64,000 nucleotides of DNA, taken from contig CAYUQT010000007.1 of assembly GCA_964446835.1 (NCBI GenBank), forward strand, positions 9,176 through 73,175. Direction: 5' to 3'. A program made the position numbers and the translations under genes. The stretch is from an uncultured Planctomycetales bacterium. Its GTDB lineage: Bacteria; Planctomycetota; Phycisphaerae; UBA1845; JAFGLZ01. The number at the start of each line of letters is the position of its first letter. Within the stretch, counting starts at the first letter, position 1. The notes under the pieces were generated by a model. That model saw only the letters and a program-made list of their open reading frames with translations, was not told the DNA's origin and did no database searches. Below are positions 7,457-30,367 of the stretch, in pieces.

Positions 7457-8251
7457 ATGAGGCCCTCGCAACATTATGGGAGGGGTGACCGACCCAAGAG
7501 GAGAACACCCTTGTCATCTCTGAGAGCTGTACTGTTTGTGGCAGGTATGTCGTTGTCGGCCGTGATCATCTCGGCGGTGGACGTCGCCCAGGCTGAAGAG
7601 GGCTGTCCTTCACAATGTGCGGGCTGTCCCCTGTCTCGCCCCGGCACTCCCCCGAAGGGTGCGATCATTCTGTTTGACGGCAAGGACACGTCCAAGTTGG
7701 GGGGGATGGACGGGAAGCCCTTCCCCTGGAAGATCGTTGACGGTGCCATTGAGATCGTGCCGGGCACCGGTGAACTCGTCACGAAGGAGAAGCACGGAAG
7801 TTGCCGGCTGTACATGGAATTCCGCGTGCCCACGCCGTCGGAAGCACACTGGGAACAGCGTGGCAACAGCGGAGTCTACCTCCAGGGGCGCTACGAGATT
7901 CAGATCATCGACAGCTACGGCAAGGACCCGGAATCGCACCAGTGCGGGGCCCTGTATAGCATTGCCGCCCCCAGCAAGAACGTCTGCAAGAAGCCGGGTG
8001 AGTGGCAGAGCTTCGACATCACGTTTCATGCCCCGAAGTTCGACGCCCAGGGCAAGATGACCGCCAAGGCTCGACTGACGCTCGTTCACAACGGCGTCAA
8101 GACGCTCGACAACGTCGCGTTCGACCACGTCACGCCGGGGCCCTTCGACGAGAACCTTGCCCAGCCCGGAGTCGTTCGCATTCAGAACTACAACGGCGCC
8201 CCCGTCAGGTTCCGCAATATGTGGCTGCTGCCGCTGAAAGATGGCGATTAG
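7457..8251 (+). CDS. secreted DUF1080 (LamG-like, 3-keto-disaccharide hydrolase family) protein
   Basis: Signal peptide (LRAVLFVAGMSLSAVIISAVDVAQA) followed by a DUF1080-type concanavalin-like domain (YMEFRVP...GNSGVYLQGRYEIQIID). The start is ATG at 7457, or alternatively TTG at 7511 directly after AGGAGA. The ORF-track start at 7340 lies inside the promoter. Confidence 0.75.
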   Translation: MRPSQHYGRGDRPKRRTPLSSLRAVLFVAGMSLSAVIISAVDVAQAEEGCPSQCAGCPLSRPGTPPKGAIILFDGKDTSKLGGMDGKPFPWKIVDGAIEIVPGTGELVTKEKHGSCRLYMEFRVPTPSEAHWEQRGNSGVYLQGRYEIQIIDSYGKDPESHQCGALYSIAAPSKNVCKKPGEWQSFDITFHAPKFDAQGKMTAKARLTLVHNGVKTLDNVAFDHVTPGPFDENLAQPGVVRIQNYNGAPVRFRNMWLLPLKDGD

Positions 8252-21930: not shown

Positions 21931-23022
21931 CTAGTCACGAAACAGAGGGGAGTCGGCTCGGTCGCCCCGTCGCCGCGCGACGGCCCGATAGATGGCCAGG
22001 GCGTTCGGGATCGGGGTGTCGGGCTGGATGTTGTGGCACGGGCCGAGGATGTAGCCCCCGCCCTTGCCGACCTCGTCCATCAGGTGCTCGACCTCTTGTT
22101 CGACCTCGGCGGGGGTCGACCGCTGAAGCCCACCCTGGACGTCCACGCCGCCGTGCAGGACGATCCGGCCGGCGAACTCCTTCTTGAGGCTGTAGGGGTT
22201 CATGCCGACCGCCTGGGGCTGAATCGTCTGGAGGGCGTCCATCCCCACCTGAACGAACCGCGGGATGAGGGCCCGGCTCGATCCGCAGCAGTGGTGCGAG
22301 ACCTTGGCGCCGTAGCTGTGGACCATGTCGAAGAGTTCCTTCTTGCGCGGCGCGAAGAGATGATCGAAGGTGGCGCCCGAGATCAGGGGACCCCGTTGTG
22401 TGCCGAAGTCGTCGCCGCACAGGACCAGGTCGATGCGCCCCGCCGCGGCCTTGAGCGACCGTTCGATGTGCTCCATATAGAATCGATGCCGCCGCTCGAC
22501 GATGTAGAGGTAGACGGGATCTTCCATGGCGATGTCGAGCAGCACCTGTTCAACGCCGCGACCGAACGCCACACCGTTGATGAAGTCCTGCACGCCGAAG
22601 CTCCCCACGGCGATCGCCTTATCCGGATGCTTGCGGCAGAGCACGTGAATGGCGTCGTAATCGTATGCGTCGGCGCTCGGCCATGGGTGAGCCTTCGCCT
22701 CATCGAGGGTGGTCCACCTGGCGAACGGCAGGACGGTCGGTTCGGCGTACTCGCCGTATTCGTTGGGCATCGGCTTGCGAACCACGCCCCAGATATCCGT
22801 CACGGCCCCGTCGGGGTACGTGGGCAGTTTCGGACCGATGTACGGCGGATTGACGAACCGCAGGTCGGTGCCGAGGGCGTCCATCAGCGCATCGTCGGTG
22901 GAGACACCGAAATGATCGAGCAACGCCCGATGGATCTCCGGCGTGGCGAAGTAGTCGCAGGGAGTGCAATCCGGCTGAGTGTGGGCCAGTGCGGTCTCAA
23001 TGCGCGTCCGTGAGCTCATCAT
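21931..23022 (-). CDS. uroporphyrinogen decarboxylase (URO-D) family protein, MtaA/CmuA-like methyltransferase
   Basis: Start MMSSRTRIE overlaps the upstream stop (ATGA). URO-D fold motifs are present. The ORF-track N-terminal 175 aa are Arg-rich antisense junk. Confidence 0.7.
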   Translation of the reverse strand: MMSSRTRIETALAHTQPDCTPCDYFATPEIHRALLDHFGVSTDDALMDALGTDLRFVNPPYIGPKLPTYPDGAVTDIWGVVRKPMPNEYGEYAEPTVLPFARWTTLDEAKAHPWPSADAYDYDAIHVLCRKHPDKAIAVGSFGVQDFINGVAFGRGVEQVLLDIAMEDPVYLYIVERRHRFYMEHIERSLKAAAGRIDLVLCGDDFGTQRGPLISGATFDHLFAPRKKELFDMVHSYGAKVSHHCCGSSRALIPRFVQVGMDALQTIQPQAVGMNPYSLKKEFAGRIVLHGGVDVQGGLQRSTPAEVEQEVEHLMDEVGKGGGYILGPCHNIQPDTPIPNALAIYRAVARRRGDRADSPLFRD

Positions 23023-24191
23023 GCATAGACTCCATATTCCCGCACCGCCTCCCACATGGCCATGATGTTTTCCGGCGGTACGTCGGCCTGAATGTTGTGA
23101 ACCGTGTTGAAGATGAATCCGCCGCCCGGGGCAAGGTCTTCGATCCGGCGCCGAACTTCCTGCCGGACGTCGGCGGGCGTGCCGCGAGGCAGGATCCGCT
23201 GTGTATCCACGCCTCCTCCCCAGAAGGTCAGGTCTTTTCCGAATCGTCGTTTCAGTTCGCGTGTGTCCATGCCGGCGGCACTGACCTGAACGGGGTTCAG
23301 GATATCGATGCCCGATTCGATCAGGTCGGGCAGGATGGAGGTCACGGCGCCGCAGCAGTGATAGAAGATCTTGACCGGCACCCGGGCATGTTTCCGGATG
23401 AATGAGAAGAGTCGAGTGTGTCGGGGTTTGATCAGTTCGCGATAGAGGTCCGGCGCGACGAGAACGCGATCCTGCGTGCAGAGATCGTCGGCCTCGCTGA
23501 CGACCATGACGTTCTCGCCGACGAGTTCGAGAACGCGGGCCCAATACTTCATCTTGATTTCGCAGACGATGTCCAGAAGCGCCTCGGCCAGCGGCCGGTC
23601 GGCGAGCATGTCGCAGTAGTAGTTCTCAAAGCCGCGCATCCAGAGCGCCATTTCGAAGATGCCTGGGGCGTTTCGACCCAGGACGTAGGCGACCTGACGA
23701 CGATTCATCAATTCGTCGGCCTTGGCGGCGATACCCTCGTAGCGCCCCGGGTCCAACGGATCCGGAAAGCGAACGGCGGCCAGATCCTTCACGCCGGTGA
23801 TGTTGGCCAGCGGATGCACGCGCATGTCGTAATAGAAACCGCCGTCCCTGGGCATCCACCACTCGATGCCCCACTCGTCGAGGTACTTGTGGTAGGCCTC
23901 TTCGGTCCATGTTCTGGGACGGTGGGCGTTCGGCGGCCCGGGATTGATTCCGCAAACATCGACCTCAAGACGCTGCTTGACGTCGTCGTGAACCCTGGCG
24001 AGCTGCTGGAAGGTGTCCTCGATCTCGATCTCGACCTCGGGCAGCCCGAGATAAGTTCTCAGGCGGCGGTAGGCCTTCTCGTGAATACCGGTCAGAATCG
24101 TGCCGCCCAGATCGAACGGCACGCGATCGGGCTCCTGATGATTCAGACTGGCCTCGACGCGACGACGGCTCGTCCAGGAATGTGTCGACAT
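23019..24191 (-). CDS. uroporphyrinogen decarboxylase (URO-D) family protein, MtaA/CmuA-like methyltransferase
   Basis: Start MSTHSWTSRR is preceded by GGAGAG. It shares the fold of the downstream paralogue (VPFDLGGTILTG, NVMVVSEADD, ILNPVQ). Confidence 0.7.
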   Translation of the reverse strand: MSTHSWTSRRRVEASLNHQEPDRVPFDLGGTILTGIHEKAYRRLRTYLGLPEVEIEIEDTFQQLARVHDDVKQRLEVDVCGINPGPPNAHRPRTWTEEAYHKYLDEWGIEWWMPRDGGFYYDMRVHPLANITGVKDLAAVRFPDPLDPGRYEGIAAKADELMNRRQVAYVLGRNAPGIFEMALWMRGFENYYCDMLADRPLAEALLDIVCEIKMKYWARVLELVGENVMVVSEADDLCTQDRVLVAPDLYRELIKPRHTRLFSFIRKHARVPVKIFYHCCGAVTSILPDLIESGIDILNPVQVSAAGMDTRELKRRFGKDLTFWGGGVDTQRILPRGTPADVRQEVRRRIEDLAPGGGFIFNTVHNIQADVPPENIMAMWEAVREYGVYA

Positions 24192-24336
24192 GAGCGTCTC
24201 TCCATACGTTCCATTGGAGCGATTCGACGACGCCACAGTGTACAGACTGAGTGAAGGGCGGGCCAGATGGAAGAAATCCCACCGGCCGGGCGTCCAAACC
24301 TTCGGCAGCGTCGAGGCAGAAGACAATACTATGATT

Positions 24337-24364
24337 TTGATATTTTAGAATAGTGCTATATACT
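24337..24364 (+). promoter_or_regulatory. AT-rich promoter/operator region (TTGATA-N16-TATACT) of the ArsR-family regulator operon
   Basis: A 70-nt AT-rich island in a GC-rich genome sits between divergent genes. The -10 element ends about 7 nt before the regulator ATG, so the transcript may be leaderless. Confidence 0.35.
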
Positions 24365-24370
24365 GTTATT

Positions 24371-24691
24371 ATGGTGCGACACCCGCAAACATCTCGACAG
24401 CATCTCCAGGAGGAAGACCTCGAACGGATTGCGCATGTTCTGAAGGCGGTGGCTCATCCGCTTCGACTCCGGATCATCGAACTTCTGGAGGGACGCGAGA
24501 TGTGTGTCACCGCCCTGATCGAGGCCCTGGGCACCAAGCCGGCGATCACCAGCCAGCAGCTTGGGCTGATGAAAGACCGGGGCGTGCTTGCGAGCCGTCG
24601 GGATGGGAATCATGTGTATTACCGTGTGGTGAATCCCGGTGTGATCCGAGTGCTTCACTGCATCCGGGTTCACGCCGATGCCGAAGGGTGA
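24371..24691 (+). CDS. ArsR/SmtB-family transcriptional regulator, SqrR/BigR-like (two conserved Cys)
   Basis: The wHTH signature HPLRLRIIELL...CVTALIEAL, plus a second Cys near the C-terminus (VLHCIRV), gives the two-Cys arrangement of persulfide-sensing BigR/SqrR. Confidence 0.7.
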   Translation: MVRHPQTSRQHLQEEDLERIAHVLKAVAHPLRLRIIELLEGREMCVTALIEALGTKPAITSQQLGLMKDRGVLASRRDGNHVYYRVVNPGVIRVLHCIRVHADAEG

Positions 24692-24733
24692 TTTAAACAT
24701 CAGGCGAGCCTGAGCCGTTGACAGGAGCGCATC

Positions 24734-25318
24734 ATGTGGTGGATGCTAGTGCTTGGTTTGATGGTTGGAGGATTGGTGGGGTTCGGCTGGTATCGTCTGG
24801 TCGGGTGCAGGACGGGAACCTGTCCGATCACGTCCAGTCGGACGACATCGATTCTTTTTGGCGCTGCCATGGGCCTGTTTGTGGCCCTGCAAGCGCAGGC
24901 GTCGAGCGGTAACTGTCCTCTGACACGTGCGTTGGGGCGCGATGACGGCGTCGCGTCGGCCCACGTTAAGCCCGACAAGACTCAGAAGGAGAAAAGGACC
25001 ATGGCGGAAGTGATTACGTCGGACAGTGATTTTGAAAGCAAGGTTCTCAGCGCGGATAAGCCGGTGCTGGTGGACTTCTATGCCGATTGGTGCGGGCCGT
25101 GCAAGTTTCTCGCCCCCGTCGTCGAGGAGATGGCCAAGGAACTGGCCGGCAAGGCGTATGTATACAAGATCAACGTGGACGAGGTCGGCGGCGTAGCAGC
25201 CCGCTACGGCATCCAGTCGATTCCCACGGTGATCCTCTTCAAGGGTGGCGAGGCGGTCAAGCAGTTTGTCGGCGTAAGGGGCAAAGAGGAATACGTTTCT
25301 GCCCTTGGCAAACTGTAG
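24734..25318 (+). CDS. thioredoxin with N-terminal Cys-containing membrane domain (fusion ORF; internal RBS+ATG at 25001 would yield a canonical 105-aa thioredoxin)
   Basis: AGGAG RBS before 24734. The N-terminal 60 aa have two TM segments and the motif GCRTGTCP. The C-terminal half is a classic thioredoxin (WCGPC). AAGGAG precedes the internal Met at 25001. Confidence 0.7.
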   Translation: MWWMLVLGLMVGGLVGFGWYRLVGCRTGTCPITSSRTTSILFGAAMGLFVALQAQASSGNCPLTRALGRDDGVASAHVKPDKTQKEKRTMAEVITSDSDFESKVLSADKPVLVDFYADWCGPCKFLAPVVEEMAKELAGKAYVYKINVDEVGGVAARYGIQSIPTVILFKGGEAVKQFVGVRGKEEYVSALGKL

Positions 25319-25453
25319 CCTTCGCACGCAAGCCATGATTCCTCTCAAGGCGCGCCCACATCGCTTGAGCGCGCTTCCTTATCCATGTCCTGCGTCGCGA
25401 ACCCCTGAGGAAACCGTGTGCTCCACACGGCGGACCGGATGAAAGGCACACTG

Positions 25454-27157
25454 ATGGACCGTGAACTGAACGTCATAGTGATCGGCGGCGTGGCCGCGGG
25501 GATGAAGTCGGCATCGAGACTGAGGCGGCTGGATCCCAAGGCTCGGATCACGGTGATCGAGAAGGACCGGCTGGTCAGCTACGCGGCGTGCGGCATGCCC
25601 TACTACGTCGAGGGGTTGGTCAACGACATCGATCATCTGATGACCACTCCGGTCGGGGCGCCCCGCAACCCGGCCTTCTTCCACGCGGTCAAGGACATCG
25701 AGGTCCGAACGCGAACCTGGGCCGAGCGGATCGACCGGGCGGCTCGGTGTGTCCACGTCAAGAACCTGGACACGGGCCAGACCGATGTCCTTTCCTACGA
25801 CAAGCTGGTCATTGCCACGGGCGCATCACCGGCCGTGCCGACGATTCAGGGGGTTGAACTCAAGGGGGTTTATAAGCTGTATCACCCCGATGAAGCCCAG
25901 GCATTGCGGCAAGCGGTTGACACCGGGCAGATCCGCCGGGCCGTCCTGATCGGTGGCGGTCTGATCGGGATGGAAACGGCCGAGGCGCTGGTCGCCCGAG
26001 GCGTTCAGGTGACCATCGTCGAGAAGATGGGCCACATTCTGCCGAAGCTGCTTGACGATGAATCGGCGGCATTCCTCACACGGCACTTGCGCGCCAAGGG
26101 CGTCAACGTGATCACGCGTGCCGACGTGACGGGTATTGAAGGCGACACCGAGGGGCACGTCCGCTCGGTTCGGGCCGGCGAGCACACGATTGAGACGGAC
26201 ATGGTGCTGCTGGCCATCGGGATCCGTCCGAACGTCGACCTGGCGCGCCATGCGGGGCTGTCGATCGGTCAGACCGGCGCCATCGACGTGGACGATCGCT
26301 GCCGTACGAGCGACCCGAACATCTATGCCGGTGGCGACTGCGTGGAGTGCGTCCACCGGATCACCGGTCGGAAGGCCTATGTCCCGCTGGGCTCGACGGC
26401 GAACAAGCATGGCCGGATCATCGGCGACAACCTGGCCGGCATCGAGAGCCGTTTCGAAGGGATTCTGGGCACGTGCGTCTTCAAGGCGTTTGACTATACG
26501 GTCGCCCGCACGGGTCTGACCGAAGTTCAGGCTCGCGAGGCGGGGCTGACAACTCGAACCTCACTGGTGCCCGGCCCCGATCGGGCGCACTACTATCCCG
26601 GCAGCCAGCCGATCCTGGTGAAGCTGATCGCCGATGCCTCATCGGGCCGATTGCTGGGGGCTCAGGTGGTTGGCGCTGGAGAGTGTGCCAAACGGATCGA
26701 CGTGCTGGCCACCGCCATGCATTTCAAGGGAACGATCGACGACGTGGCGTCGCTCGACCTCGGGTATGCCCCACCCTATGCCGGGCCCATCGACAACGTG
26801 GCTCACGCGGCCAACGTGGTCCGCAACAAGCGCGACGGCATCGCCGTTTCCATCGGTCCGCAGGAGCTTCGCGAGAAGCTCGGGCGCGGTGAGGATCTCG
26901 TGCTGCTCGACGTTCGAACGCCTGCTGAGATCGAGAAGATGCGGATCGAAGACGCTCACGTGGTCTGCATCGGCCTGGGCCGGCTGCGGGAGCAGCTCGA
27001 TCGGCTGCCTCGTGACAAGGAGATCATCACCTACTGCTCGGTCAGTCTTCGCGGCTACGAAGCCCAGCGGATTCTCGTCGGAGCGGGCTTCTCTCGGGTG
27101 AAGTTTCTGGACGGCGGCCTGGCGGCCTGGCCATACGAACTCAAATACGGCAAGTAG
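25454..27157 (+). CDS. CoA-disulfide reductase family FAD/NAD(P)H oxidoreductase fused to C-terminal rhodanese domain (CoA persulfide reductase type)
   Basis: FAD fold GGVAAG, active-site Cys in SYAACGMPYY and NAD-binding GGGLIGME. The C-terminal rhodanese domain has the catalytic Cys (YCSVSLRG). Confidence 0.8.
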   Translation: MDRELNVIVIGGVAAGMKSASRLRRLDPKARITVIEKDRLVSYAACGMPYYVEGLVNDIDHLMTTPVGAPRNPAFFHAVKDIEVRTRTWAERIDRAARCVHVKNLDTGQTDVLSYDKLVIATGASPAVPTIQGVELKGVYKLYHPDEAQALRQAVDTGQIRRAVLIGGGLIGMETAEALVARGVQVTIVEKMGHILPKLLDDESAAFLTRHLRAKGVNVITRADVTGIEGDTEGHVRSVRAGEHTIETDMVLLAIGIRPNVDLARHAGLSIGQTGAIDVDDRCRTSDPNIYAGGDCVECVHRITGRKAYVPLGSTANKHGRIIGDNLAGIESRFEGILGTCVFKAFDYTVARTGLTEVQAREAGLTTRTSLVPGPDRAHYYPGSQPILVKLIADASSGRLLGAQVVGAGECAKRIDVLATAMHFKGTIDDVASLDLGYAPPYAGPIDNVAHAANVVRNKRDGIAVSIGPQELREKLGRGEDLVLLDVRTPAEIEKMRIEDAHVVCIGLGRLREQLDRLPRDKEIITYCSVSLRGYEAQRILVGAGFSRVKFLDGGLAAWPYELKYGK

Positions 27158-27283
27158 CCCTTGGGCCGCGTACAGGCGGATTGAACTCGCGATCGGGAGG
27201 CACGGAGCCGAACTTAGGAACGACCGCATTCGCTGCCCCGGTTGGAGGCGCGACGCCGGAAGCGGATTCATCGGGAGAGGATC

Positions 27284-28837
27284 ATGTCGAAGGCCCGAAT
27301 GCACTTTCGAGTGGCCGATATGTTCTGCAGCGAGAGTCGCCCCGAGCCCTGCGGCGTCATCATCTTCGGGGCCTCGGGGGATCTGGCACACCGTAAACTG
27401 CTGCCGTCGCTGTATAGCCTCTTTCGCAGGAACCTCCTGCCCGAGCGGTTCTTCGTCGTGGGGTGCGCGCGAACGGCGATGACCGACGATTCATTTCGGC
27501 AGAGTCTCGGCGTTTCGCTGGAGAAGTTCGCGGATGCAGGAACGGCTCAGGAGCGAGAGGCCTTCGGCCGGTCCTGCTATTACGTCGCGGGGGACTACAC
27601 GTCGGCAGACCTGTATGCCACCCTGGGCGAGAGGCTCGTCGATCTCGAAGCTCGCCACGCGACAGAAGGCAATCGTGTCTTCTATGCGTCGGTTCCACCC
27701 CAGGTGTATGAAAGGGTCATTTCCCGGCTCGGGGAGACGGGCCTGACCGAAGAGCCTGATGACCGAACCCCCTGGCGGCGCGTGGTGATCGAGAAACCCT
27801 TCGGTCGCGACCTGGACAGCGCTGTAGCCCTGAGCCGCGACCTTCATCAGGTGCTGTACGAACACCAGATCTACCGTATCGATCATTACCTCGGCAAAGA
27901 CACGGTTCAGAACATCCTGATGTTGCGGTTTGCCAATGCGGTTTTCGAACCGCTCTGGAACCGTCAATACGTCGACCACGTGCAGATCACCGTGGCCGAG
28001 TCGGTGGGTGTGGAGCATCGAGCGGGTTACTTCGAGCAGAACGGATTGCTGCGCGACATGTTCCAGAACCACATGCTCCAGATGCTCGCCCTGGTGGCAA
28101 TGGAGCCGCCGGTGTCGTTTGACGCCGACCGGGTTCGCGATGAGAAGTCGAAGCTGACGCGATCGATCCGCCCATTCCATCCGAAGGACCTGGATCGCTG
28201 GATCGTTCGGGGACAATACGGAGCGGGGCGGATCGGCGAGGACACGGTTCCTGCCTATCGAGAGGAACCCGATGTAGCACCCGATTCGGGCGTCGAGACC
28301 TACGTGGCCGCCAAGCTGCTGATCGATAACTGGCGGTGGGAGGGTGTGCCGTTCTATCTTCGGTCGGGCAAAAGGCTGACGCGGCGGGTCAGCGAGATCG
28401 CCCTGACATTCAAGAGCGTGCCGCACTCGATCTTCGTGCCGATTGTGGCAGAGGACCTGGCACCCAACGTCCTGGTACTGAACGTCCAGCCGGAAGAGGG
28501 CATGTCGCTGACGATCCAGGCCAAGCGTCCGGGGCCGAAGCTCTGCATGAGCGCGCTGACGATGCACTTCAGCTACCGGGAGGTCTTTGGAGGTGAGCTT
28601 CGCGACGCCTATGAACGACTGCTGCTCGACGCCATGCTGGGCGACCAGACGCTCTTCATGCGGTATGACAATATCGAGCTGGCCTGGGCGCTGCTGAACC
28701 CTGTTCTGGGTCTCTGGGCAGAAGGTGCGCAGAGCAGGTCCACCTGCCCGCTACACACGTATGCCGCCGGTTCGTGGGGACCGACCGCGGCCGACCAACT
28801 GCTCGACGCCGACGGCCGGCGATGGCGCGTGCCCTGA
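27284..28837 (+). CDS. zwf: glucose-6-phosphate 1-dehydrogenase
   Basis: NADP-binding motif [13 protein letters not shown] and the G6PD signature RIDHYLGKD. Confidence 0.85.
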
Positions 28838-28985: not shown

Positions 28986-30080
28986 CTATCGGCGGGTTCG
29001 ACGGACGATCGCCAGGCCGCCGAGGGCCAGGAGGCCGATTGTCATCGGTTCGGGGACGACATAGTTGAAGTAGATGTCATCCACGAAGGATGCCGTGTCA
29101 CCGACACCGCCATAGGTGCGGAAGGTCAGCGTGTGCGTGGTCCCATGAACGGTGAAGGCGTCGGTCGTGCGCCGTTCCCACGCGGTGTTGCCCACCCAAT
29201 GAACGGAGTAGACCGACACGCCGTCGAGGAAGACCTCGAGGTTGTTTCCGTTGTTGGGGCCGTTCGTGCGATTGCGCTCCAGCCAGCAGAGGTTGTAGGT
29301 AACGCCGTCCTCAAAGCTGCCGAGGGTCTGAGTGATCTCGGACCAGCCCTGCATGAAGGCAAACTGGTTACCCTCGGCCGCGGGACCGCCAAAGCCGATG
29401 CTGTCATAGCCGCTGCGGTCGAGCCCGGACCCACCGTTGAACGACCAGGCCACGCCGCTCAGACCGTTAGGGGTGTACTGAAGGGTGTTGGGACCCAGTT
29501 GGGCATCCTCGAACCCGAAGTTCATCGGGGCCGGAGCCCATTGCTCGACGGCCACCTTGTCCCACAAGGCGGTGTTGTCATAGGCCCCTTGATTGTTGCC
29601 GAGTACCAGGTTGGCATTCGTGCCGATGGCGACATAGGGGTTATGGCTGATGACGTGGCGATAGTAGAGGTCCTGGCGGGCGATATCGTGTTCGGGGACG
29701 ACGGTCGTACCGCCGAGCGTCACATACGGACGGGCGACCTCACCGGTGCCCATCTGTCCCCGCTCGTTCTCGTAGTAGTTGACGCGGTAGGCCCTGCCGG
29801 CCTCAAAACCGGAGACGTCCTGCCAGATGTAGTTCTGCGTCTGAGTGAAGGCCACCCATCCCCCGTCGGGAACCGAAGCCCCGTTGTTAAACGGACCCGA
29901 CGTGTCATTGCGACCGCTGGAACCGCCCGGATAGCTCCATCCATCGATGGGACCATAGCCGGGCCATTCCGGTGCGGCGCCCTGCTCGAAGCTCGAATTC
30001 AGAACCACCGGCGATGCCCAGGCACTGGCCGCAACGAGACAAGCTGCTGCCAGACTGACATACCGTGAAGCTCCCCTCAT
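28986..30080 (-). CDS. PEP-CTERM sorting-domain secreted protein
   Basis: Signal peptide (MRGASRYVSLAAACLVAASAWA). C-terminal VPEP motif, then a TM helix and an RRTRR tail (PEP-CTERM). GGAGGTG RBS. Confidence 0.75.
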   Translation of the reverse strand: MRGASRYVSLAAACLVAASAWASPVVLNSSFEQGAAPEWPGYGPIDGWSYPGGSSGRNDTSGPFNNGASVPDGGWVAFTQTQNYIWQDVSGFEAGRAYRVNYYENERGQMGTGEVARPYVTLGGTTVVPEHDIARQDLYYRHVISHNPYVAIGTNANLVLGNNQGAYDNTALWDKVAVEQWAPAPMNFGFEDAQLGPNTLQYTPNGLSGVAWSFNGGSGLDRSGYDSIGFGGPAAEGNQFAFMQGWSEITQTLGSFEDGVTYNLCWLERNRTNGPNNGNNLEVFLDGVSVYSVHWVGNTAWERRTTDAFTVHGTTHTLTFRTYGGVGDTASFVDDIYFNYVVPEPMTIGLLALGGLAIVRRTRR

Positions 30081-30367
30081 TTCACACCTCCGAGGACAGA
30101 CGACTGTGAATTGAAATCCCTTCGGGCAGGACGAATACTGTCCCCTTCCGCCCTTGTCACATCCCATCAAACAACCTATCAGCATGGTAATTCTATGGAT
30201 CATTTCTGTCAATTGCATTCTTTCGATTGGCCCCTCACACCTCGGAATTGCCACCTGCCCCGGAATCGCGGGGCTGCTTGACAGGTCCCGTGGGATCGAT
30301 CATTCTGCCTCTACATGCCCATGGAGTCTGTGTCCGGATCGGTTCGTCGTACGGAGAGGGCGTGCCG

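Follow-up and report, generated by a model that had tools for sequence, protein, structure and literature searches.

A 64-kb stretch of DNA from an uncultured Planctomycetales bacterium (Phycisphaerae, Planctomycetota; contig CAYUQT010000007.1; hereafter the window) carries the gene for a small ArsR/SmtB-type regulator next to genes for a membrane-anchored thioredoxin (Trx) and for a fusion of CoA-disulfide reductase with rhodanese (CoADR-RHD), and the question that this locus raises is which signal the regulator answers and which genes it governs. Open reading frame (ORF) calls and domain searches place three co-directional genes on the + strand of 24371-27157. The first encodes a putative ArsR/SmtB winged-helix repressor of 106 amino acids (aa) with Cys45 and Cys97 (24371-24691; profile matches, alignments and structure model), the second a DUF6132-thioredoxin fusion of 194 aa (24734-25318; profile matches, hydropathy and AlphaFold2 (AF2) model), and the third an NAD(P)H persulfide reductase homologue of 567 aa, a CoADR-rhodanese fusion of the Npsr/CoAPR type (25454-27157; profile matches and alignments). 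An earlier note on this DNA had described the same three genes, and its domain assignments were recovered by profile searches (NF033788 in the regulator; DUF6132 and TIGR01068 in the second protein; Pyr_redox_2, Pyr_redox_dim and Rhodanese in the third).

The answer that we favour, with moderate confidence, is an autoregulated thiol-stress operon, in which an ArsR-type thiol-switch repressor controls a membrane-anchored Trx and a persulfide/polysulfide reductase. The regulator is read as a thiol-based stress repressor because its relatives adjoin genes for Trx, CoADR-rhodanese, OsmC and HAE3-family RND transporters, and the most likely inducer is sulfane sulfur (persulfide or polysulfide), as the nature of the enzyme suggests. 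The earlier note had proposed a compact unit for H2S/persulfide detoxification; the unit is indeed compact, probably autoregulated and recurrent in related genomes, and the persulfide inducer is the part that is deduced from the enzyme.

The promoter and candidate operator of the regulator gene

A sigma-70-type promoter precedes the regulator gene on the + strand (24337-24364), in which the -35 element TTGATA (24337-24342) and the -10 element TATACT (24359-24364) are separated by a 16-nucleotide (nt) spacer and together match 10 of 12 consensus positions. Promoter-like sites are clustered there (4 versus 0.6 expected in shuffles), the GC fraction is 0.41 versus about 0.62 nearby, and the orthologous regulator gene has TTGAYA-N16-TAYAYT-N6-ATG in front of it at seven further independent loci, eight in total with the window. 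The AT-rich promoter abutting the regulator ATG, proposed in the earlier note, is thus borne out. The ATG starts 7 nt past the -10 element, and the regulator mRNA would be leaderless, since the A of the start codon sits at the expected transcription start.

The conservation of the spacer exceeds what a promoter requires, and the spacer holds a palindrome, ATATnGCnATAT. In the window, the candidate operator (24350-24369, unstranded) consists of this palindrome and ATAT-like tetramers and overlaps the -10 element; its palindromic part, ATAGTGCTATAT at 24350-24361, has one mismatch to ATATnGCnATAT, and the tetramers extend it with an 8-nt period (ATAG-N4-ATAT-N4-TTAT). This site is the sole match to the palindrome in the 64 kb, and no second copy exists elsewhere in the window, including the region 5′ of the reductase gene. 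When the 220 nt upstream of the regulator gene were scanned with one mismatch allowed at 77 loci with a family regulator, 66 matches were found in 45 of the loci, compared with 0.9 in shuffles of the same 220-nt stretches, and the density of the motif upstream of the regulators is 134 times that in the rest of the loci. Across the family, the motif frequently takes the form of ATAT-N4 repeats with the 8-nt period. This is good evidence for the ATATnGCnATAT-type site as the predicted operator, to which the regulator would bind, and autorepression is suggested because the candidate operator overlaps the -10 element of the regulator's own promoter.

No further promoter-like site is present in 24400-27500, nor any terminator-like site in 23900-27500, and the regulator, Trx and CoADR-RHD genes probably form a compact, autoregulated unit. 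A gene for glucose-6-phosphate dehydrogenase (G6PD, zwf; 27284-28837, + strand) starts 126 nt 3′ of the reductase gene. It is co-directional and syntenic in three related genomes, and since no terminator-like site stands before it, this gene may be co-transcribed as well. The order regulator, DUF6132-Trx, sometimes a small Cys-rich ORF, CoADR-RHD and G6PD recurs within the closest clade of regulators (at least 65% identity), at loci L013, L014 and L018.

Cysteines of the regulator

The regulator belongs to the ArsR/SmtB family by its profile scores (NF033788, 73.5 bits with a cutoff of 55; PF01022, 30.8 with a cutoff of 22). Its AF2 model (pLDDT 89) has the expected ArsR/SmtB winged-helix topology, with alpha1 at residues 14-27, alpha2 at 30-39, a strand at 43-45, alpha3 at 46-53, alpha4 at 57-69, the wing at 73-86 and alpha5 at 89-105, and Foldseek matched it to ArsR-family structures at probability 1.0. 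In this model the recognition helix is formed by residues 57-69, ITSQQLGLMKDRG; HPLRLRIIELL, which the earlier note took for that helix, is actually alpha2. The protein has exactly two cysteines, as the note had counted. The first, which it had placed after the recognition region, directly precedes alpha3 and corresponds to the first of the two Cys in ELCVCDL, the classical alpha3 motif of ArsR, and the second, Cys97, lies in the middle of alpha5.

These two cysteines had been taken to mirror the sensing pair of SqrR from Rhodobacter capsulatus and BigR from Xylella, Agrobacterium and Acinetobacter. The SqrR pair is composed of Cys41 in alpha2 and Cys107 in alpha5, the sulfurs of which are 7.0 A apart (bioRxiv 10.1101/2020.03.22.001966). 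The window regulator has the winged-helix fold of these ArsR/SmtB proteins (phmmer E about 1e-10, Foldseek probability 1.0) and a similar recognition-helix core, SQQL, and both are Cys-containing repressors, or presumed repressors, adjoining sulfur-handling enzymes; their sensing Cys positions, however, are taken by Glu37 and Asp103 here. In an ungapped phmmer alignment with SqrR, the alpha2 Cys faces Glu37 and the alpha5 Cys faces Asp103, and hhalign of the family profile with an SqrR-like SoxR from a Ruegeria plasmid gave the same register. Cys45 stands opposite a Ser, and Cys97 six residues upstream of the SqrR alpha5 position. The alpha2 column (Cys41 of SqrR, Cys42 of BigR) is Glu or Asp in all but a few of 121 relatives and Cys in none (0/121), and the alpha5 column (Cys107 of SqrR, Cys108 of BigR) lies one residue past position 102, which is usually Cys in the family and Ala in the window protein. 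The BigR equivalog model NF040642 gives 47.9 bits, far below its cutoff of 155. Membership in the BigR/SqrR group is thus ruled out by pairwise alignment, profile alignment and the cutoff of the profile model, and the proposed likeness of the Cys pairs fails on the very misalignment that the earlier note had itself named as speaking against it. The targets are different as well, being SQR, PDO and blh for SqrR/BigR and Trx and CoADR-RHD here. The SqrR operator is ATTC-N8-GAAT, unlike the candidate operator ATATnGCnATAT of the window. Hence, a two-Cys ArsR gene adjoining a CoADR-rhodanese gene needs a check of its Cys register before it is labeled BigR/SqrR.

It is highly improbable that the regulator is instead a sensor of metals or metalloids (As, Sb, Cd or Zn). 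Its best structural and sequence neighbours do include M. smegmatis SmtB, CadC and the antimony sensor AntR, the last of which (6UVU in the Foldseek table) is a top match; Cys45 has the place of the first Cys of the ELCVCDL motif, and His101 aligns with what we take to be the SmtB alpha5 ligand His117. The canonical ligand set is nevertheless incomplete: alpha3, which reads MCVTAL (CVT, not CVC), holds one Cys, there is none in the N-terminal arm, and the alpha5 metal positions are N88, G90, H101 and A104, the AntR cysteines (presumably Cys103 and Cys113′) aligning with G90 and V100. Neither the operon nor its surroundings contain an efflux or reductase gene of the ars, czc or cad kind, and nine relatives of the regulator keep only Cys97 among positions 45, 97 and 102.

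About 200 homologues of the regulator were collected, of which 188 non-identical ones were used for the Cys counts (an earlier set held 121). Their hosts are mostly metagenome-assembled genomes (MAGs) of Phycisphaerae, Sedimentisphaerales and Pirellulales, together with some Anaerolineales, Desulfobacterales, Syntrophobacteraceae and Chthonomonadales. Cys97 is invariant (188/188), Cys102 is present in 169 within the motif C-I-R-x-H-C, and Cys45 is present in 92. A requirement of Cys97 for either Cys45 or Cys102 was considered, as all 7 of the C102-less proteins in the first 121 had Cys45; the pattern was gone at 188, nine of which have neither (Fisher p = 0.81). By its alignments, then, the regulator is a member of an undescribed ArsR subfamily whose sole invariant Cys is in the last helix. 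When the SmtB alpha5 ligands and the AntR Cys pair are lined up with the window protein, the antiparallel alpha5 helices of the dimer would cross near residues 95-96 and could bring Cys97 and Cys97′ together as neighbours.

The favoured mechanism can be put as follows. A dimeric ArsR/SmtB-type repressor would bind the ATATnGCnATAT-type operator over the -10 element of its own leaderless promoter and thereby shut off the genes for the regulator itself, DUF6132-Trx and CoADR-rhodanese, and possibly zwf. A thiol-reactive signal, most likely sulfane sulfur, would modify Cys97 in alpha5, for which Cys45 or the Cys97′ of the other subunit may be the reaction partner, and the repressor would then leave the DNA. 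The Npsr/CoAPR-type flavoenzyme would use NADH to reduce polysulfide or persulfide, CoA persulfide included, to H2S, and the membrane-anchored Trx, by way of a redox-active C-x4-C hairpin of DUF6132, would reduce oxidised or persulfidated thiols at the membrane.

We know of no ArsR protein that senses through a single invariant alpha5 Cys at the dimer interface. To our knowledge, nearly all that has been established about regulons for persulfide and thiol stress comes from Proteobacteria and Firmicutes, where the sensors are of three types, CstR, SqrR/BigR and FisR. With the locus, a fourth type suggests itself for anaerobic members of the Planctomycetota and certain other anaerobes: a subfamily of ArsR proteins that has an operator of its own and in which one Cys, at another position, is the only invariant one.

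The reductase and the nature of the signal

The start codon of the reductase gene is ATG 25454, with in-frame alternatives at ATG 25439 and GTG 25418. Its closest solved relative is A. fulgidus Npsr (6PFZ; E 4e-164, residues 5-559 aligned), followed by E. faecalis CoAPR (8A56; E 5e-107, full length). The single redox Cys46 in SYAACGMPYY, a motif of the S-x-x-x-C-G-[LM]-P-Y type, aligns with Cys42 of both solved enzymes, and Cys528 (YCSVSLRG) of the rhodanese domain (PF00581, residues 469-559, about 26858-27130) aligns with their rhodanese Cys. The identification as a CoADR-rhodanese fusion in the earlier note is therefore confirmed, by the domains and by both catalytic cysteines. The score with the CoA-disulfide reductase equivalog TIGR03385 is 441.5 bits, below the cutoff of 578.8, which fits a related but distinct, rhodanese-fused subfamily. 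The window enzyme is, as judged from these alignments, a homologue of the Npsr/CoAPR-type persulfide reductases, with a predicted activity on persulfide or polysulfide. Both solved enzymes are specific for persulfide or polysulfide (PMC7969121), and the persulfide sensor CstR controls CoAPR, a reductase of CoA persulfide (PMC9405070).

The E. faecalis cst-like operon resembles the locus in that a gene for a CoADR-rhodanese-type persulfide reductase is placed under a dithiol repressor (PMC9405070); unlike the window regulator, CstR has a CsoR-like fold, and that operon has free rhodaneses and no membrane thioredoxin. The Npsr enzymes of A. fulgidus (6PFZ) and Shewanella loihica share the CoADR plus rhodanese architecture and the Cys positions with the window enzyme, which is known from sequence; in its genomic context and its regulation, the archaeal enzyme may differ (PMC7969121). 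The locus would work like the CstR-CoAPR and SqrR/BigR systems, with a regulator that falls in neither sensor family.

The neighbours of the regulator family bear directly on the signal. They were counted on the same strand at 80 genome loci, and the counts are lower bounds, many contigs being short: an HAE3-family RND transporter is present at no fewer than 43 of the 80 loci, a thioredoxin at no fewer than 23, CoADR-RHD at 11 or more and an OsmC-type peroxiredoxin at 8 or more. The CoADR-RHD genes include a second clade with 34-36% identity, which still spans the rhodanese domain, and the recurrence of two divergent clades with the regulator family lends support to a real functional link. The OsmC and RND neighbours imply that the family regulon is wider than persulfide clearance. 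Among the more distant members of the subfamily (L020-L091; for example L030:538-3600, L035:6297-9500 and L041:865-2372), the next gene most often (43 of the 80 loci) encodes a well-conserved HAE3/MMPL-type RND transporter of ~880 aa with 55-90% identity, often accompanied by OsmC, Trx and the second CoADR-rhodanese clade.

This wider regulon gives some room to the main rival reading, a possible but not a probable one, in which the regulator is a general sensor of oxidative or disulfide stress (O2, H2O2, organic hydroperoxide or electrophiles) and CoADR-RHD serves mainly as an NADH oxidase or a thiol-maintenance enzyme in an anaerobe. The family contexts with OsmC/Ohr-type peroxiredoxin, thioredoxins and the HAE3 RND exporter would suit it, as would the hosts, mostly of anaerobic lineages (Sedimentisphaerales, Anaerolineales, Desulfobacterales, Syntrophobacteraceae), and AfNpsr, the closest solved homologue, shows NADH oxidase activity (PMC7969121). 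There is also a precedent in RexT of Nostoc sp. PCC 7120, an ArsR-family thiol switch that senses H2O2 and de-represses the thioredoxin gene trxA2 (PMC8960804). RexT, however, has a vicinal Cys pair with no equivalent in the window regulator, and is absent from the PDB sequence matches of the regulator at E<=1e-3. In addition, the enzyme has a rhodanese domain and both of the cysteines that define persulfide reductases, CoADR-RHD recurs with the regulator family in two divergent clades, and rhodanese accompanies the DUF6132-Trx module elsewhere, all of which speaks against this reading.

Several points count against the sulfane sulfur-responsive operon that we favour. Since neither Cys of the regulator matches the BigR/SqrR pair, persulfide specificity is not transferable by homology, and Cys97, in the helix at the dimer interface, could be invariant for a structural reason. 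The window regulator is without Cys102 and may sense differently or more weakly. Co-transcription of the three genes is a prediction, and the 135-nt gap 5′ of the reductase gene may contain an unrecognised promoter. Other sulfide-oxidation genes (SQR, PDO, TauE) are absent from the vicinity in the window. Finally, a family regulon dominated by HAE3 RND (43/80), Trx (23) and OsmC (8) resembles a general oxidative/electrophile defence in anaerobes, and a regulon of OsmC, Trx and RND is just as compatible with a general sensor of thiol or oxidative stress.

A second layout within the closest clade raises the further, unlikely reading that the locus serves dissimilatory or fermentative reduction of S0 or polysulfide as an electron sink, like the SurR-controlled NSR of Thermococcales or the NAD(P)H polysulfide reductase of Thermotoga. 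In this layout (L015, L016/L003 and L017), the regulator gene is followed by a HoxE/NuoF-like NADH module, which at L003/L016 and L017 is an NADH-input module with Fe-S proteins, and CoADR-RHD follows further downstream in L003/L016. Sulfur respiration was the role first suggested for Npsr (PMC7969121), SurR responds to sulfur and regulates energy genes (PMC12162507), and the Thermotoga polysulfide reductase is cytoplasmic (PMC9431562). However, genes for a hydrogenase or a membrane sulfur reductase are missing from the surroundings in the window, a thioredoxin partner is typical of repair and not of respiration, and the regulator is without the CxxC motif of the SurR type. L017 also has tandem paralogous regulators (L017:6001-6309 and 7469-7819), one of which heads DUF6132-Trx and a small ORF and the other a small ORF and the HoxE/NuoF-like NADH module.

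The DUF6132-thioredoxin protein and flanking features

In the second protein of the putative operon, a DUF6132 domain (34 bits with PF19628, cutoff 23.2) at the N-terminus is joined to a C-terminal TrxA-type thioredoxin (TIGR01068, 118.6 bits, cutoff 96.8), in which residues 119-123 read WCGPC. According to its hydropathy and an AlphaFold model (pLDDT 68), the protein has helices at 2-23 and 36-56, a disordered linker at 57-88 and a Trx fold at 92-193, and a WCGPC thioredoxin fused to a Cys-containing domain with two transmembrane (TM) helices, as seen in the earlier note, is hence upheld. The membrane hairpin is encoded by 24734-24907, with the motif C25-x4-C30-P, and the Trx part by 25001-25318. 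The hairpin agrees with DUF6132 as a membrane domain of about 60 aa and two helices with a conserved C-x-[TS]-G-x-C-P, and the domain alignment shows no variation at G12, G16, C25, G28, C30, P31 and T33. Shortly past the second helix, the linker has Cys61-Pro62 in G-x-C-P-L (24914-24919), so that the N-terminal domain has three Cys in all, and this type of CP motif recurs in several Phycisphaerae orthologues (P0122, P0124, P0128 and L014).

The fusion recurs in at least two clades, and an identical copy of the window gene, with the same neighbours, is present on two public metagenome contigs. A Met at the junction in the Phycisphaerae clade, together with a Shine-Dalgarno AAGGAG in the window (AAGGAG-N8-ATG at 25001), suggests that free Trx might be made in addition; the second clade has no Met at the junction, which argues for true fusions. 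A literature search on DUF6132 found no paper describing the function of the family.

In three distinct orthologues, the codon for Cys30 of DUF6132 is an in-frame TGA (L012:3022-3024; L019:6474-6476, identical to L005 and L006; L177:236-238), where the window has TGT (24821-24823). The frame continues into the Trx domain, gene callers having begun the genes just past the TGA, and an identical hairpin, GGUGGC-AGUUG-GCCACC, begins 13 nt downstream of the TGA in these orthologues. The TGA is a candidate selenocysteine (Sec) codon, which would make the motif C-x4-U; a pattern of this kind is typical of Sec at redox-active positions, and its presence in three orthologues marks this residue as redox-active; alternatively, the gene may be split at that point. 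An Rfam search of the operon and the TGA orthologues for selenocysteine insertion sequences (SECIS) and other RNA families gave no match, and no tRNA gene, hence no tRNA-Sec, is present in the window.

Stand-alone DUF6132 genes (~58 aa) were found in Holophagae (Holophaga), an unclassified NCBI MAG and a JGI metagenome contig (L094:3782-5321, L095:3801-5346 and L096:3675-4477). They are clustered with genes for an RND efflux pump, YgaP-like_TM and thioredoxin; in L094 and L095 the next gene is one for rhodanese, and L095 also has OsmC. From its gene content, this cluster looks like a widespread, undescribed membrane thiol/sulfur module. DUF6132 has some likeness to YgaP and YgaP-like TM proteins, whose genes adjoin the stand-alone DUF6132 genes, and to relays of the DsbD/CcdA type, as all of these have short membrane hairpins or helices with conserved Cys-Pro motifs and rhodanese or thioredoxin partners; it is, however, a separate Pfam family of only two helices, for which a relay function is speculation.

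A broader proposal, which we put forward tentatively and hold to be rather doubtful as a whole, is that DUF6132 is a redox-active membrane hairpin, in which the second Cys is replaceable by Sec, and that, fused to Trx or encoded next to it, this hairpin makes up a minimal relay of thiols or selenols, which would handle disulfides or sulfane sulfur either at the membrane or across it. The relay would be part of a widespread, undescribed stress module (RND/HAE3, YgaP-like TM, DUF6132, Trx, rhodanese or CoADR-RHD, and OsmC), which in Planctomycetota would have come under the control of a new subfamily of ArsR proteins; these would use one invariant alpha5 Cys at the dimer interface as their sensor, for example by way of a Cys97-Cys97′ disulfide or polysulfide. 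The Trx fusion, the rhodanese neighbours and the Cys/Sec exchange provide the first functional handle on DUF6132.

In relatives, a small Cys-rich ORF is usual 3′ of the Trx gene, as at L001:6967-7215 (82 aa, unannotated) or L007:7056-7292 (78 aa), the latter being an FmdB-type zinc ribbon with CxxC...CxxC. The window is without such an ORF, and its trx-reductase gap is only 135 nt. In this gap lies the 7-bp hairpin with a 3-nt loop, CCGTGTG-ctc-CACACGG (25414-25430, + strand), to which the earlier note had pointed. It exists, but is neither conserved nor above chance, perfect 7-bp hairpins in the window numbering 36 versus 36 +/- 8 in shuffles. As a regulatory element, including a terminator, it was rejected on its chance frequency, its absence from relatives, its position outside the minimum free energy fold of the intergenic region and the missing T-run.

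Two adjacent URO-D-like paralogues (uroporphyrinogen decarboxylase family; 21931-24236, - strand) are divergent from the regulator gene and lie outside the conserved unit, because relatives have DegT and LarA there instead. On the other side, beyond zwf, the - strand of 28986-30254 encodes a protein of 422 aa, which has no Pfam match and carries a PEP-CTERM-like C-terminal sorting signal (VPEPMTIGLLALGGLAIVRRTRR).

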